DNA from: a virus
Lineage: Duplodnaviria; Heunggongvirae; Uroviricota; Caudoviricetes
Reading direction: 5' to 3' (one strand)
IMG/VR virus record: IMGVR_UViG_3300028886_000029
Location: 1 to 46,006 of that record
Length of the DNA: 46,006 nt
Part shown: positions 4,603 through 15,341 of the stretch, in pieces
How positions within the stretch are numbered: the stretch's first letter is position 1
Layout: every line of letters starts with the position of its first letter
Notes under the pieces: model-generated
The model's input: the letters and a program-made list of their open reading frames with translations, nothing else
The model's database searches: none
What the model was told of the DNA's origin: nothing
Translations under genes and position numbers: made by a program

Positions 4603-4753
4603 TATAGAAATCTAAGAAAAACTATGAACAATTCTTAGTTCCCATTTCTTGTTTCAACGAAACACTGCTTTTTAGTACCTCATTGCTGAGTCTGTCATCC
4701 ACAGTTGGTTTCTCCGCAAGCGTATATTCGGGAGTACGGCTCCCTATTATTCT
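4596..4753 (-). ncRNA. Putative omega-RNA scaffold of TnpB copy 1 (overlaps the tnpB 3' end)
   Basis: Established position of TnpB omega-RNAs; hairpin gggag-ccgta-ctccc; homologous orphan copy at 7358-7505. Confidence 0.7.
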
Positions 4754-5878
4754 TTCTCCTTCCTTTAAAATGTTAATCGCAGCATTCAAATCCCTATCAT
4801 GGTGCTCTCCACATTCAGGACAATCCCACAATCGTTCGTCAAGTGTCAGTCCCTTGTAAACATAACCACAACAGTGACAAGTCTTTGAACTTGCAAACCA
4901 TCGGTCAACTTCAATCACAAACTTGTTATTCAATATTGCTTTGTTCTTTAGTGTATTTTTAAATGCATAAAAACCAACCTCTTGTATTGCTTTAGATAAC
5001 TTATGATTCTTTAGCATCCCCTGAACATTCAGGTTCTCCATGAAAACATAATCATAATTTTCCAATAATGAATTGACAACACTGTGAACATAATCAATTC
5101 TTTGATTGTTTAAACGTTCAAATTCTTTTGCAAGTTTAACTCTTGCCTTGTTTCTGTTGTTTGAGCCTTTGGCTTTCTTGGACAATTGTCTTTGTAACTT
5201 TTTGATTTTGTTTTCACTTTTTTTAAAGAAGTGTTTATTTTCAAATACTTCCCCATCAGAAGTAATTACAAAATCCTTTACACCAAGGTCAATGCCAACT
5301 CTGTTACCTGTGTGTCTGAATTGTCTGAATTCTTCTTCATTCATGGATAAAAGGACAGATAAGTAGTATTTACCACTCTTGGTTTTCGATAAGGTAGCAC
5401 ACTTTATATTGTCCTTATAGGTTTTCAATCTATTGAAATATAAGTTTGAACAACGGAACTTCAGGTTTTTCAGATTTTTAGTTAAGGAGATATGTTTAGT
5501 TTTAAAAGTATTTGTTTTAGATATTGCTTCATAAGGGAACAATGCTGAATTGTCGTTGTGTTTGGTTTTGAATTTAGGAAACCCTTTACCAAGAGTAAAG
5601 AAGCCATCATAAGCAGACAACATCTGTCTTATTGCTTGTTTCATTACCTTGGTATTTTGTTCTTTCAACCAAGAATATTGTTCGTTTTTCAGTAGTTCTC
5701 CGTGAAAGAATTTTGATAATTCGCAAAGACCAACATTAGTTTTGTCCGCATTATAAGCCTTTTGTTTATGTGCAAGCATTTGATTATAGACAAATCGGTA
5801 GCATCCAAGCACTTTGTTAAGTGTTTGTTCCTGTTCCTTATTAGGATATAACCTTATTTTAACTGTTCTTAATATCAT
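4622..5878 (-). CDS. tnpB: RNA-guided endonuclease TnpB (copy 1)
   Basis: N-terminal LRTVKIRLYPNKEQ HTH; RuvC-I VGIDLG, RuvC-II VFMENL, Zn finger CHCC..CPEC, RuvC-III HDRDLNAAINI. All three catalytic acids are present. CTATTTAT upstream at 5913-5920. Confidence 0.95.
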   Translation of the reverse strand: MILRTVKIRLYPNKEQEQTLNKVLGCYRFVYNQMLAHKQKAYNADKTNVGLCELSKFFHGELLKNEQYSWLKEQNTKVMKQAIRQMLSAYDGFFTLGKGFPKFKTKHNDNSALFPYEAISKTNTFKTKHISLTKNLKNLKFRCSNLYFNRLKTYKDNIKCATLSKTKSGKYYLSVLLSMNEEEFRQFRHTGNRVGIDLGVKDFVITSDGEVFENKHFFKKSENKIKKLQRQLSKKAKGSNNRNKARVKLAKEFERLNNQRIDYVHSVVNSLLENYDYVFMENLNVQGMLKNHKLSKAIQEVGFYAFKNTLKNKAILNNKFVIEVDRWFASSKTCHCCGYVYKGLTLDERLWDCPECGEHHDRDLNAAINILKEGERIIGSRTPEYTLAEKPTVDDRLSNEVLKSSVSLKQEMGTKNCS

Positions 5879-6045
5879 TATCAAACAATGGGGTTTATAA
5901 CCCAATCCTTTTATAAATAGTTTATGTTTTGAAAAAATCTTGATTATTAAGACTTTTTCTTAGAATTTTATTTAACTGTTAATAACCCTGTAAGAGAAAA
6001 AATTGTTTAGAAGCCCCCAGATAATAAACTATTTTTTTTTTAAAA

Positions 6046-7216: not shown

Positions 7217-7240
7217 TGTTTGTGGTGTTTAAAAATTTAG

Positions 7241-7312
7241 AGCCTCCTGTCGGAATCGAACCAACATCTACTGATTACAAATCAGTTATAATAACCTTTA
7301 TACTAAGGAGGC
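7241..7312 (-). tRNA. trnT: tRNA-Thr(TGT)
   Basis: Cloverleaf GCCTCCT..AGGAGGC; anticodon arm actga-tttgtaa-tcagt; TTCGATT T-loop. Confidence 0.9.
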
Positions 7313-7357
7313 ATGAAGCCATGATTTATAAGGAAAACCATGGCGAAAAACCATAAC

Positions 7358-7505
7358 CACCGTATAAAGAAACTTATAAAAACCTATAAGTTTCAATTTC
7401 TTGCTTCAACCTATCACTACTTTTTAGTGCCTCATTGCTGAGTCTGTCATCCATAGTTGGATAGTCCACAAGCGTAAATTCGGAAGTACGGCTTCCTATT
7501 ATTCT
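7358..7505 (-). ncRNA. Orphan omega-RNA-like copy of the tnpB1 3' end
   Basis: Aligns by eye with 4596-4753 (shared cctcattgctgagtctgtcatcc, TATACGGTG end) with no tnpB ORF; compensatory change gggag/ctccc to ggaag/cttcc. Confidence 0.75.
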
Positions 7506-7515
7506 TACCCCTTTG

Positions 7516-11324: not shown

Positions 11325-11951
11325 TACTTCGGCTGCGACTCGAACGCAGGACCAACTGCTTAGCTTACCACTATAACTTTCGTTACCAATATAAGACTAA
11401 AAATGACCTACAGCACAAGAGGATTGCAGTCATTCCGTAACATCCCTTTTATGTTCCTCTTATTTCGGGTCTTTATATTGTTTGTGGTCTGGACTATCCC
11501 TTAACCATATTGAAATCTTGCAAGATTGGATTAGGGTTTGTTCTTACCCCGAATAGCAGGTCGCTTTCCTGCACAGTTTGTTTTAATTTTAAAATCCAAA
11601 TTTCAACTTAGGTTTCTTCCGTCTAGTCTCTACACACTGTCTATTACAAATACTGAAATGTAGCTTAATTGCATATATTTGCCTTCTATGCAATAACGCC
11701 TTTTCATTACATTCCCAATTAACACCTTTTGCAAACGAGGTGAGTATTTGTTTTTAACATTGGTTCGGTATTAGCATATATTAACAGGACTCTTCACCTG
11801 TCCGACTCATATAGAGTGTCTGATTTGATTTTATACTTAGCTTTCACCGAATTTGGAAGTTTCTACATCTAAAATTTCTTTTAGTGCACTCCTAATTAAT
11901 TGATTATCAATTACTTAAAGGCAGTTGCTCTATCCACTGAGCTACCGAAGC
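11325..11951 (-). tRNA. trnR: tRNA-Arg(TCT) split by a group I intron (exons 11951-11918 and 11363-11325)
   Basis: Spliced arm actgc-ctt|ctaa-gcagt; acceptor GCTTCGG/CCGAAGT. Confidence 0.85.
11364..11917 (-). ncRNA. Group I intron (554 nt) after U34 of tRNA-Arg
   Basis: P/Q/R/S-like cores aattcggtgaaag, aataccgaaccaa, gtagagactag, aagggatagtcc; U.G in P1; ends ...GTGGTAAG. Confidence 0.85.
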
Positions 11952-12067: not shown

Positions 12068-12895
12068 TTAAATTATTCCATAATCAATAAGCCATCTTTT
12101 CACTGTTGTTGGGCTTACGGAATATTTTCTCGCAAGTCCTGCAAATGTTTTTATTTCTAAGAAATCATTTGCTAATGTTTCTTTTTCTGGTTTGTGTTTT
12201 ACGGTATCAAGTCTTTCTCTGTAACATGTAAGACAATAACCATGAACTGTCCTATATGCTAGTGGTTTACCACAACCTTTACAACAAGTTATTTCCTTAT
12301 TTGTTGCTATGTTTTTTCCACAAAAATTATCGGTCTGAGAATGACAGTTTGGACAGAGTATTTGTATATTGTCAATTGCATTATTTTGTTTATTTCCGTC
12401 AATATGATGCAATTGTAAAACAATTTTTTCACCCATCCACTCCGTAATACCACACCTTTCACATTTTCGCTCTTTTATCCCTTCCCTAAAAAGCCTCTCT
12501 TTAAATGTATAAAGATTTTGTTTATATCCGGAACCGTTCCTTTTTCTATTTGTTAGAGTATTAGTTCTTAGTTTCAAAGATATCTTTTCTTTTGTTTCGG
12601 TACTTAAGACTCTATTTTTATTATTAAAAGAAGCAGCACAAGACGATGAACAAAACTTTTTTTGCCCAGAGATTAATTCCTTACCACATTTAACACAATA
12701 ACGTTTTTTCTTTTCTTTATACCAACCAAAATCAAAACCAATTTCTTCTGCTACCTTATTGATATATCTTATATTTGCAGTATTGCTACAAACACCATAA
12801 TATTCATAAATTTCTTTTTTGGTAGAAAATGACTTGAATAGTTCATATACTTTATGTTTTTTATCATCATTACTTATATCTATAAACATAACCAT
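12068..12895 (-). CDS. HNH homing endonuclease
   Basis: CERC..QLHHIDGNKQNNAIDNIQILCPNCH; ATG at 12895 (the longer ORF-track frame overlaps tRNAs). Confidence 0.88.
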   Translation of the reverse strand: MVMFIDISNDDKKHKVYELFKSFSTKKEIYEYYGVCSNTANIRYINKVAEEIGFDFGWYKEKKKRYCVKCGKELISGQKKFCSSSCAASFNNKNRVLSTETKEKISLKLRTNTLTNRKRNGSGYKQNLYTFKERLFREGIKERKCERCGITEWMGEKIVLQLHHIDGNKQNNAIDNIQILCPNCHSQTDNFCGKNIATNKEITCCKGCGKPLAYRTVHGYCLTCYRERLDTVKHKPEKETLANDFLEIKTFAGLARKYSVSPTTVKRWLIDYGII

Positions 12896-12989
12896 TTTTT
12901 TATATAAATATACAGAAAAATGTGAAAAAATCAAGTTTTGAACTATAAGTTGTTCAAAAAAAAGAAAAATCACCATGCTCCAATATGAG

Positions 12990-13064
12990 CAGTCATAACG
13001 GGGTTCGAACCCGTAAATCTCCACCGTGACAGGGTGGCATGTTAACCAATTACACCATATGACT
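12990..13064 (-). tRNA. trnD: tRNA-Asp(GTC)
   Basis: ccacc-ctgtcac-ggtgg. Confidence 0.9.
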
Positions 13065-13074
13065 ATAAATTTTG

Positions 13075-13147
13075 TCGGGATGATACGACTCGAACGTACG
13101 ACCCCTTGGTCCCAAACCAAGTGTTCTACCAACTGAACTACATCCCG
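13075..13147 (-). tRNA. trnP: tRNA-Pro(TGG)
   Basis: cttgg-tttggga-ccaag; CGGGATG acceptor. Confidence 0.92.
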
Positions 13148-13152
13148 AAAAA

Positions 13153-13325
13153 TAATTAGTTTCTGTTCCATCTCTGCCAATGAATTCAACAAGAAGCCTA
13201 TGGAGTGGCGTTTTATTAGCGCGCCTTTCGATTATTACCACTCAGCAAGTGTAATGTGATTTTTTCCGGATAACCCATTACTCTAATGCCAACTATCACC
13301 CATCACTGGGATGTGAAACTAATTA
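13153..13325 (-). ncRNA. Candidate ~170-nt structured RNA
   Basis: 11-bp terminal helix taattagtttc/gaaactaatta continued by catc/gatg and ccagtga/tcattgg; internal gagtgg/ccactc. Confidence 0.45.
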
Positions 13326-13348
13326 ATTTATAAGTTTTTATCATAAAA

Positions 13349-13385
13349 TTTGCTACATTTTCAAAGGGTTTGAAAATGTAGCAAA
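13349..13385. terminator. 17-bp perfect hairpin (terminator or processing site)
   Basis: tttgctacattttcaaa-ggg-tttgaaaatgtagcaaa. Confidence 0.65.
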
Positions 13386-13400
13386 ATATGTGATAATTTG

Positions 13401-13527
13401 TCGGAAACCAAGGATTTGCACCTTGAACTGTGACACCCAATAATTTTATAACAGAATGTTGCTGTACATTTTTTTTCCAAAAAACGCAAATAAAAAAGTC
13501 ACCGTGTTACTGTTACACTAATTTCCG
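13401..13527 (-). tRNA. trnP: Second tRNA-Pro(TGG) interrupted by a 56-nt insert in the anticodon loop
   Basis: CGGAAAT/GTTTCCG acceptor; gtgac-ttt[56 nt]gggt-gtcac; T-loop tgcaaat. Confidence 0.7.
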
Positions 13528-13592
13528 AATTTTTTTCCGCGGTGAGACTGAGATTCGAACTCAGGGGTCGCTCATCACGACCGGCGGTTTTC

Positions 13593-14314
13593 CTTACCAC
13601 TATAGCTTTCGCTACCAAAACAAGAAACACAATTTATTCGAATGTCCCCACTTAACTGAGGCATAGTATTATCTAACTACGAAAACGTCTCTACAATTAT
13701 ACTCTACGCCAACCTGCATACTCACGATATATCGCTTTCATGTTCTCCGTAGTGTTTCCCCAACGTTTTGTGAGTGTTTGTTTTGTTTGTGGTCTGGACT
13801 CTATCTTAACCTTATTGAAACCTTGCAAGATGTATAAGTTTACCTCAGCACCTTCAAGCTTCGTATAAACGCATCGTGTCAATTCACTTCTTTAATTCTA
13901 GTTCCACTTATACAATTTCAACTTAGGTTCCTCCCATATCGTCTCTACACACTGTCTAAGGCACTGTAGGCTTTACTACACTTATTTTAAAACAACGGCA
14001 ATCTGTTGTTACCTTAACATTGGCTCGGTATTACCATCAGCATTATCTGTTAAGGTTTCACCGAATTAGGGAGGTTCTACATCTAAAATTTCTTTTAGCG
14101 CACTCAAATTACACATTGTTCAAGAGTATGAAATAAAATAGTAAATTATTTCTTTATAGTTAAAACTAATGGGTTAACTCCTAAACCCTCTATCCCATTC
14201 GCAAATGCGTTTGGGACTGCTTTTTTTCATAATATTATAACTGCCATTAACATCAGCGTTAACATATTTGTATTGTTATATATAAATAGTATGAAAAAAA
14301 TTGAAAATATTTTC
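13593..14314 (-). ncRNA. Group I intron (722 nt) after U34 of tRNA-Ser with enlarged P1 loop
   Basis: Same core motifs as the Arg intron; P1 cttgaa/tttgag closes about 200 nt downstream; ends ...GTGGTAAG. Confidence 0.85.
14146..14270 (-). pseudogene. tnpB: tnpB C-terminal remnant (omega-RNA-overlapping region) inside the intron P1 loop
   Basis: KYVNADVNGSYNIMKK[+1 A]AVPNAFANGIEGLGVNPLVLTIKK*, a RuvC-III NADVNG-type TnpB tail; CTATTTAT at 14282-14289. Confidence 0.75.
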
Positions 14315-14475
14315 AAGACCGCTGCATTAGACCACTCTGCCACCTCACCGTAAAATAAAGATTATTCTGAACTCTGTCACCATTAACGATTATTAAGAAA
14401 AGTCTTAATAATATTGTTAAACATCTATTCAATGCTACTGTCAGTTTTTTCTTTATTAAGAAAGTCACCATAGTA

Positions 14476-14582
14476 TGCTGAGAGTCGGATTCGAACCGAC
14501 AGTCATTATCAAAGGATAATGCAGGTTACTCGCCTGAACTGGGTATTACCCCTACGAGTCTTCCAATTCGCACCACCTCAGC
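14476..14582 (-). other. Atypical class II tRNA-like element with an extra hairpin
   Basis: GCTGAGG/TCTCAGC acceptor, canonical T-arm, long variable arm, extra gggt-aat-accc hairpin, non-canonical loop cgagtaa. Confidence 0.5.
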
Positions 14583-14714
14583 CTTCGTGACCATATTTTA
14601 TTTTCAATTTCACATATTCAATAAAATAATTTGTATTTATCAGTATTGTCAAAGAAATATTAATTTCATTGCAAATGTATAAATCTTTTTTTTTACAACA
14701 AAATTAATTTTTAG

Positions 14715-15341
14715 TTGAAGGCAGAGGAATCGAACCTCTATTCTGGGAACCCATACCACTATAGCTTTCACTACCAACTAGCATTCAATTGCAGGATGAT
14801 ATTTACCCACCTCTCATGGTTGGTGAAGGAACATATTGCTATATATTTATCCCGTTTACTGCAATTTACATTGTTTGTGGTCTGGACTATACCTTAACCA
14901 TATTGAAATCTTGCGCAAGTAGGAAGCATCAGTCTCTAAGTACTTTCTTATAAACTCAATCCTTATTGAAATAATATATATTCTTACGGATGTGGAATAT
15001 TACTCTTCTTCCATTTCAACTTAGGTTTTCTCCATCTAGTCTCTACACACTGTCTAAGTTTTACATGCTCCGTTTGCTACACCTTGCACAAAGAATTACA
15101 CTTTGTCCATATGTGGGAACTCGAATCCCCTGCAAAACTATAACATTGGCTCGGTATTAGCATATATCTCATCTGTTATATCCTCTCGGATAATCTCGTG
15201 ATTTACAATGCCCTCTCGGACAAACACACTCTTATATGATTACTTAGCCTTCACCGAATTTGGAGAATTCTACATACAAAATTTCTTTTGAAGCATTCGA
15301 TTTTTTCAAAATCCCATGTCTTACCTTTAGACGAGCCTTCA
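14715..15341 (-). tRNA. trnQ: tRNA-Gln(TTG) split by a group I intron (exons 15341-15308 and 14751-14715)
   Basis: Spliced tggga-tttt|ggt-tccca; TGAAGGC/GCCTTCA acceptor. Confidence 0.82.
14752..15307 (-). ncRNA. Group I intron (556 nt) after U35 of tRNA-Gln
   Basis: Same core motifs; P1 tttga/tcgaa with U35.G; ends ...GTGGTATG. Confidence 0.82.

Follow-up and report, generated by a model that had tools for sequence, protein, structure and literature searches.

A probable IS607-family transposon remnant beside the 5′ splice site of a tRNA-Ser group I intron in a rumen jumbo phage

IS607-family insertion sequences (ISs) of Clostridium botulinum encode a serine-recombinase TnpA followed by TnpB, insert without target duplication and form a structured RNA from the tnpB 3′ end and the transposon right end (RE), with the downstream flank as guide. 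Experiments on this system showed that TnpA integrates at TGGG, that TnpB needs TGGG as its transposon-adjacent motif (TAM) and that the omega-RNA scaffold ends in UCGG (bioRxiv 10.1101/2023.11.20.567912). In IStrons (CdISt1, BcISt1 and CboIStron; Tourasse et al. 2014, PMC4227781), an IS607- or IS605-type element and a group I intron form a single mobile unit, intron on the 5′ side and IS on the 3′ side; the introns are of type IA2 and lie mostly in protein-coding genes, both splice sites are transposon ends, and the omega-RNA guide overlaps sequence required for splicing, which sets splicing and guide formation in competition. Group I introns of bacterial and organellar tRNA genes, including cyanobacterial tRNA-Leu(UAA) and Azoarcus tRNA-Ile (PMC13168695), interrupt the anticodon loop after U34, form the paired segment P1 with the anticodon-arm exon, end in G and circularise after excision. 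Here we describe a locus where these themes meet, in which a probable IS607-family remnant of 193 nt lies next to the native 5′ splice site of a group I intron in the tRNA-Ser(UGA) gene of a rumen jumbo phage. The DNA analysed, hereafter the window, is the first 46 kb (46,006 nucleotides) of IMG/VR record IMGVR_UViG_3300028886_000029, a 363,317-bp virus genome that CheckV rates complete, with a GC (guanine plus cytosine) content of 33.5%; the stretch was recovered from bovine gut and rumen sequencing runs of ten studies. We consider it very probable that an IS607 element inserted at a GTCT in tRNA-Ser, underwent deletion and left its remnant beside the splice site of a probably active intron.

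The tRNA array lies on the minus strand of the window, as do the tRNA, intron and IS features described below. Across the whole genome ARAGORN found 16 uninterrupted tRNAs, 0 of them for serine, and the intron-split tRNA-Ser(UGA) is the sole serine tRNA of the phage. As first read, the gene consists of a 5′ half running to U34 (14315) and a 3′ half beginning at G35 (13592), separated by 722 nt (14314..13593) whose last base is G; ligating the halves in silico yields a canonical 89-nt tRNA-Ser(tga). In that reading CUUGAA (14317–14312) is pairable with UUUGAG (14108–14103) to form P1, with U34 opposite G. The native splice site lies in a second UCUUGAA, at 14125–14119, which adjoins the internal guide sequence (IGS). 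Native U34 and the 5′ splice site lie at T14122|G14121, beside the IGS, where U34 pairs with G14105 and the P1 loop measures 11 nt. The native intron therefore spans 529 nt (13593..14121). It has the P, Q, R and S elements of a group I intron, extended P8 and P9 segments and a terminal G (G13593), and is supported by Rfam model RF00028, paralogue alignment and an RNA contig. By in-silico splicing, the 5′ exon comprises tRNA positions 1–33 (14316..14349), ending in GTCT (G30–U33), and the 3′ exon runs from G35 to the discriminator base (13540..13592).

Two paralogous introns in the same array place this assignment on firm ground. Introns of 554 nt in tRNA-Arg(UCU) (11364..11917; short P1 hairpin) and 556 nt in tRNA-Gln(UUG) (14752..15307; 5-nt P1 loop) carry no IS, and removing each in silico restores a canonical tRNA-Arg or tRNA-Gln. 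All three introns contain the P/Q pair of P4 (AAUUCGGUGAAAC / AAUACCGAGCC) and the R/S pair of P7 (GUGUAGAGAC / AAGAUAGAGUCC), have P2, a P9.0-like hairpin and an identical 3′ end in common, and show covariation in P3 (CCUCCC/GGGAGG, CUUCC/GGAAG and UCUCC/GGAGA); their P1 loops are short, at 5–25 nt. The RF00028 match at 13786–14118 (32.7 bits, E 3e-6 in a local scan) falls below the gathering cut-off of 50, a score lowered by the large peripheral insertions, and the intron case thus rests on the P/Q/R/S elements, the paralogues, the covariation and the RNA contigs. We conclude that tRNA-Ser is split by a real group I intron belonging to a probably active ribozyme lineage, with tRNA-Arg and tRNA-Gln paralogues and a circle junction in an RNA library. 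Similar to the tRNA introns cited above, it follows U34, builds P1 with the anticodon-arm exon and ends in G; it differs in its hosts (Ser-UGA, Arg-UCU and Gln-UUG in a phage genome, three paralogues in one tRNA array) and in its length, since extensions of P5, P6, P8 and P9 bring the family to 529–556 nt. The P9 extension at 13619–13782 is skipped (164 nt) in DNA contigs of two runs, and P9 is short in the orthologues on contigs L060 and L057 introduced below, indicating that the peripheral P8 and P9 extensions vary among strains; some joints skipping this interval may derive from the paralogous introns.

The sequence between the tRNA 5′ exon and the native splice site has a close counterpart elsewhere in the genome. 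The initial annotation had recognised, inside what it took for the P1 loop, the motif CTATTTAT, the TnpB-tail peptides KYVNADVNGSYNIMKK and, in the next frame, AVPNAFANGIEGLGVNPLVLTIKK, and a 9-bp repeat at 14125–14133 and 14288–14296; these features and the P1 halves are all where it placed them. Its attribution to TnpB is borne out by tblastn, with 96% identity over residues 370–395 of a 395-aa TnpB, and the tail is, as had been stated, of another type than the two TnpBs of the window (21–22% identity). A search of the genome against itself at the DNA level recovered the tail at 348271–348423 (98%) and the left part at 350079–350129, which lie in an intact IS607-family element on the minus strand at G000:C1 350157..348272. 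This copy, at 348.3–350.2 kb, is the cognate NADVNG-type TnpB locus that the initial annotation had proposed looking for; tblastn of the genome found no further copy of this TnpB type. It encodes a 188-aa serine recombinase TnpA (PF00239, 1.8e-19) followed immediately by the 395-aa TnpB (PF01385, OrfB_IS605, 4.6e-24; PF07282, TNB domain, 1.8e-10), sits just past the stop codon of a 221-aa open reading frame (ORF) in an intergenic position with no surrounding intron, and is an ordinary IS607-type tnpA–tnpB element.

Identity to this intact copy extends over both ends of the insert (14123..14315), which comprises a remnant of the left end (LE), the last 41 tnpB codons and the RE. The LE part matches at 18/18 and 36/36 positions on either side of a 22-nt gap between T-runs, and the RE part at 148 of the last 150 nt, differing by an extra A in the run at 14221–14227, which causes the frameshift, and by a G at 14217 where the intact copy has A. 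The LE opens with TGAA (14312..14315), the intact copy with AAAA. The tnpB remnant (14146..14269) encodes residues about 355–395 and the stop. The two parts of the insert overlap at an 8-nt microhomology, ACAAATAT (14264..14271), which occurs twice in the intact copy, once in the LE and once inside tnpB; ~1.67 kb, tnpA and most of tnpB, was therefore lost by microhomology deletion. On these sequence matches we interpret the segment as an internally deleted, non-autonomous copy of an IS607-family transposon whose intact form resides in the same genome. In keeping both ends while losing its genes it resembles other non-autonomous IS200/IS605/IS607 miniatures, which are akin to miniature inverted-repeat transposable elements (MITE) and palindrome-associated transposable elements (PATE) and include ORF-less BcISt1 (PMC4227781), and any activity would accordingly depend on proteins supplied in trans; unlike those, it is the only mini copy in its genome, arose through a microhomology deletion and is embedded at a ribozyme splice site.

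Strain and RNA comparisons throughout this study used assembled contigs rather than reads, and contig depth is not a measure of expression. DNA runs X5 and X13 contain strains that differ from the window at 12 of 474 nearby positions. Their insert is the same one, down to the internal deletion, but has no extra A and agrees with the intact copy at 14217, which dates the insert before the frameshift and shows that it is shared across studies. Among the DNA contigs of four runs, absence of a contig skipping 14123–14315 was counted as neither support nor contradiction, and several contig joints that appeared to skip or go back, with 4–6 mismatches, represent paralogous or foreign introns. In wider searches, matches in INPHARED phages were limited to the tRNA exon, neither the exact RE 23-mer of the insert nor the RE–intron junction pattern matched in IMG/VR, and a gapped pattern for a short-P1 allele had no match. 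An 18-mer from the NADVNG coding region gave 36 matches, nearly all of them tail-fibre repeats, with TnpB tails only in L017, L027 and L046.

To set the ends of the element we used eight full tnpA–tnpB relatives, one of them found in three unrelated contexts. In all three contexts of that element and in five other relatives the left flank is GTCT, and the RE ends in ...CATACTCT (CTCT) followed by unrelated sequence, with no target-site duplication, as is characteristic of IS607. The 9-bp repeat, which had been described as flanking the segment, is present as such; it is not a flanking duplication, being the subterminal TTTCATACT of the element, which the intact copy and its relatives also have at both ends (LE and RE). 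A crossover dinucleotide formed by the two bases after GTCT was also considered and rejected, as these bases match only in the mini copy and not in seven other elements. Because GTCT corresponds to G30–U33 of the tRNA, the insert falls between U33 and U34, 1 nt upstream of the native 5′ splice site (U14122|G14121). By its true ends the insert thus lies in the exon; the location in the P1 loop given by the initial annotation would hold only if a distal splice-site mimic derived from the LE were used.

The rule parallels that of the C. botulinum IS607 element, in which a 4-nt target and TAM likewise abuts the LE (GTCT, a putative TAM, here; TGGG there) and the last RE bases echo the target (CTCT here, TCGG there). 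The two systems differ in TAM sequence, and the element studied here is phage-borne, has a phage gene-upstream motif in its LE and, in the copy at tRNA-Ser, lacks both genes.

Related phages retain the site without the insert. A pre-insertion 20-mer spanning GGTCT|TGAAC... occurs exactly in one 94.5-kb IMG/VR contig (L057, identical to L058) and in the JGI metagenome contig L060; in these the sequence is contiguous as GGTCT|TGAACAATG, with no IS, so that the tRNA exon leads directly into the intron, and over the upstream flank and tRNA 5′ half both contigs share 94% identity with the window. The L060 intron, at 403 nt, splices in silico to tRNA-Ser(UGA), and GTCT in L060 is followed by the same 30 nt that stand after the RE in the window. 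Contig L059 was rejected as an empty-site relative, since only the 20-mer is common and the match is due to chance. The NADVNG-type TnpB was not found on the 94.5-kb relative, a fragment estimated at 23% completeness and hence uninformative on this point. Together, the empty-site orthologues and IS-free paralogues establish that the insert is secondary and lineage-specific and that the intron family owns no TnpB. In L057 (IMGVR_UViG_3300028048_000103), the tRNA-Ser 5′ half with the front of its intron continues, about 640 nt downstream of that half, into the 3′ end of another intron and the 3′ half of a different tRNA, with the tRNA-Arg intron gene coming next; this arrangement looks like a recombination of paralogous introns that deleted part of the array.

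The composite is consequently not an IStron: the intact IS is intron-free and the homologous introns are IS-free, whereas in an IStron intron and IS form one mobile unit with ends at both splice sites. The likeness lies in the joining of an IS607-type element to a group I intron, in a transposon end within a base of a splice site and in the ORF-less form, which is known among IStrons too. The difference is that here the IS is a separate unit, which landed next to a resident tRNA intron on the upstream side of that intron's 5′ splice site, and only the RE of the IS is near a splice site.

These observations show that the element, or its full-length parent, integrated at its usual GTCT target, here in the tRNA-Ser anticodon arm, where a group I intron was already present and had its native 5′ splice site 1 base further downstream. 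Loss of about 1.67 kb between the ACAAATAT repeats left the LE with a promoter-like motif and the RE with a conserved four-stem scaffold. The native splice site CUCUU|GAA, now at the end of the RE, would still be reactive, and the LE bases TGAA, by recreating U34 and the intron's first GAA, would place a second, distal CUU|GAA on the tRNA exon. Were P1 to close over the 203-nt insert, mature tRNA-Ser could still form, and circularisation of the excised intron at the proximal site would afterwards discard the IS RNA.

RNA contigs bear on which of the two sites reacts. In RNA run X17, a 282-nt contig matches with 0 mismatches from 13810 to 13590 and then from 14118 to 14058, with GAA common to both sides; the shared GAA makes this the junction of the terminal G13593 (omega-G) to G14121, that is, a circular (or permuted) intron RNA. 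The chemistry by which a terminal G circularises an intron at the IGS-pairing site is established (PMC13168695, citing papers by Been & Cech). X17 has no cover on the insert or its flanks, which we take as evidence in neither direction. RNA run X3 belongs to another study; its exact contigs span 13590–13744, 13715–13811 and 13782–14121 at depths of 259–533, and exact flanking contigs span 13300–13619 (depth 15) and, including the insert, 14092–14688 (depth 45); this one depth value of the insert-bearing contig is uninformative on transcription of the insert. A de Bruijn graph branching at a circle junction would be expected to break at 13590 and 14121, the contig ends seen here, and one containing an insert-free allele at 14125. 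The circle data fit two routes, either direct use of the proximal site or distal splicing followed by proximal circularisation, which releases a linear insert RNA.

The best-surviving alternative, to which we give somewhat less than even chances, is that the insertion killed tRNA-Ser: the intron would react only proximally, the 5′ exon would keep the 193-nt insert and the distal CUU|GAA would be coincidental. The proximal site lies 11 nt from the IGS and the distal exon 203 nt away, the sole RNA junction seen uses G14121, and the exact intron-core RNA contigs stop at 14121 with the insert on a separate contig of lower depth. Against this, the same circle would arise from distal splicing followed by proximal circularisation, and the distal exon is the better partner on paper, its authentic sequence pairing with the IGS region at −7.4 kcal/mol versus −4.9 for the proximal, RE-derived mimic, because the 6-bp P1 is extended by three pairs between G27–G29 and the GCG/CGC flank of the IGS. 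The exons are also intact in what is the only serine tRNA gene of the phage, and the variable-arm pair G13578–C13570 is A–U in one insert-bearing strain and in L060, a compensatory change that is weak evidence that the tRNA remained under selection. Moreover, of the three substitutions between remnant and intact copy, two affect the LE bases by which U34 and the following G are recreated, a pattern that is suggestive of selection for tRNA rescue; the LE starts of relatives (TT, TC or AA) mean that the parent may already have differed.

The remnant retains sequence that could serve a nuclease in trans. The claim that CTATTTAT (14282..14289) is a promoter motif holds to the extent that it is a gene-upstream motif of the phage: 46 of its 75 genome copies (61%) are followed within 5–70 nt by a same-strand ATG of an ORF of at least 80 aa, against a mean of 12% and a maximum of 24% for 60 permuted control words. 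In the intact copy 49 nt separate it from the tnpA ATG, and it also precedes both TnpBs of the window. At the other end, nucleotide conservation among seven tnpB genes rises from about 0.72 to 0.84–0.87 in the last ~110 nt, and RNAalifold on 8 sequences folds the tnpB 3′ end and RE into four stem-loops with compensatory changes in 7 of 31 pairs. Rfam holds no family for the RE of the element; by its position the fold is predicted to be the omega-RNA scaffold (14123..14222), ending ...CAUACUCU. All four stems are intact in the remnant, where G at 14217 is still paired (G–U). Directly 3′ of the RE, the predicted guide (14103..14122) takes in native U34, the 5′ splice site after it (14122|14121), the P1 loop and, at 14108–14103, the IGS UUUGAG.

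The remnant could therefore be a guide-RNA cassette, as the initial annotation offered as one option; that a conserved structured RNA was kept makes this part of the proposal possible, and use of the RNA by TnpB remains a prediction. On the events outlined above, a transcript of the remnant would be an omega-RNA guided by the P1 loop and IGS of the intron, with which TnpB from the intact copy could cut, in trans, insert-free alleles carrying GTCT followed by native U34 and the first bases of the intron, alleles that exist in related phages. If the intron cleaved at its 5′ splice site, scaffold and guide would come apart, an IStron-like conflict produced by accident of insertion. The candidate nuclease belongs to a very large TnpB clade (G000:C1 348295–349482, homologues P0003–P0122), comprising thousands of proteins at about 70% identity, many on 310–330 kb contigs, in which D183 and D361 do not vary, G or K occupies the canonical RuvC-II glutamate position and an NEE motif is conserved before YTSKC. 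A relocated glutamate has been described for some TnpB and Fanzor lineages.

A stronger version of this idea, which we regard as doubtful, holds that the remnant is maintained as a functional promoter and omega-RNA cassette, and that TnpB acting in trans cuts insert-free alleles of co-infecting relatives and so drives its spread or retention, as in canonical TnpB homing. It overlaps the explanation we prefer, insertion and deletion beside an active intron, and differs only in claiming present function. Survival of four covariation-backed stems and the upstream motif through a 1.67-kb deletion speaks for it, as do the base change at 14217 that keeps a pair, persistence of the insert in diverged strains from several studies, the perfect 30-nt protospacer with GTCT in related phage contigs and the intact tnpB in the same genome. 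Persistence, however, is also expected of a neutral insert that has no TnpA site for excision or is simply linked; there is one mini copy in the genome and none was found in IMG/VR; a cassette transcript and its binding by TnpB are predictions; and intron folding and 5′ cleavage would occupy or remove the guide.

Several points weigh against the overall explanation of insertion, deletion and continued intron activity, or against parts of it. The X17 circle-junction contig could stem from an insert-free strain with the same intron, and the X3 depth contrast is limited by what contig depths can convey. Ligated tRNA exons were found in none of the contigs or reads, so that use of the distal site is a proposal, and the proximal site, adjoining the IGS, may win kinetically, which would leave the tRNA dead. 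The signs of selection for restoring the splice site are no more than suggestive: the LE of this only mini copy starts with TG instead of the AA of the intact copy, a difference of two bases, and its parent may have been another variant. For the guide-RNA part, GTCT is a putative TAM by analogy with C. botulinum IS607 and by comparison, transcription of the remnant from its own CTATTTAT and its binding by TnpB are predicted only, and the activity of the presumptive partner TnpB is assumed from the conserved NEE in a clade whose canonical RuvC-II glutamate is absent.

A further scenario, which we think very improbable, is that splicing at the proximal site after U14122 would re-aim the guide, the scaffold ...CAUACUCU-U being ligated to the tRNA 3′ exon. 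If true, the re-aimed guide (U34, G35 onward) would match intron-less, insert-free tRNA-Ser(UGA) genes preceded by GTCT, and unspliced RNA would target intron-containing, insert-free alleles; intron and IS remnant would then make up an RNA-guided homing unit for the tRNA gene in which ribozyme chemistry picks the target.

Least credible of all is the other option raised in the initial annotation, that the locus is the relic of an intron family that once held a full tnpB in P1 as an RNA-guided homing nuclease: a full-length element may once have occupied the site before its internal deletion and the guide after the RE matches the intron, yet this reading is already contradicted by the tRNA-Ser orthologues with an empty site (L060 and L057/L058), the homologous introns without tnpB that the initial annotation had itself named as refuting, by both paralogous introns, which are free of IS sequence, by the intact copy and eight relatives, plain IS607 units in varied contexts outside introns, and by element ends that obey the GTCT/CTCT rule and not the intron boundaries.

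Other features of the genome lie outside this argument. At G000:C1 about 200.5–203.1 kb there is a second, unrelated IS607-like pair with a TnpB-like frame of 551 aa, whose serine recombinase is 31% identical to the one at 349.5–350.05 kb. A second orphan tnpB 3′ end occupies 7349–7513 (minus strand) beside tRNA-Thr (7240–7312); it matches the TnpB gene at 4622–5905 over that gene's 3′ end and RE (78% identity) and contains a weak RAGATH-18 match at 7398–7472 (30.2 bits, under the cut-off). Between two intron-bearing tRNA genes, at 12068–13192 (minus strand), lies a mechanically called 374-aa ORF with an HNH domain; its 5′ end overlaps tRNA-Asp and tRNA-Pro, and the true gene start is thus further downstream. 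A tRNA-like gene at 14476–14582 (minus strand) scores 31.6 bits with the Rfam tRNA model and receives no ARAGORN call; its acceptor and T arms are intact, its D-loop region holds a hairpin-forming insert of ~40 nt and its anticodon loop does not fold to 7 nt. Strain variants concentrate there, with 7 of the 12 differences found across 14222–14695.

The association of IS607/TnpB elements with group I introns is itself known, and the present arrangement differs from that of IStrons. Here an IS607/TnpB element has come to abut the splice site of a group I intron naturally and independently; the host is a phage tRNA gene, the element lies 5′ of the intron and its predicted guide is made of the intron's P1 loop and IGS. 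Our analysis also documents three paralogous group I introns in tRNA-Arg, tRNA-Ser and tRNA-Gln of a rumen jumbo phage, and a large, jumbo-phage-resident TnpB clade whose elements carry a phage promoter-like motif. With an insert-bearing allele, an insert-free allele and intron paralogues on hand as natural sequences, the system is suited to asking whether a second copy of the 5′ splice site is something that a group I intron can tolerate or exploit, and whether ribozyme folding and omega-RNA function compete outside IStrons.

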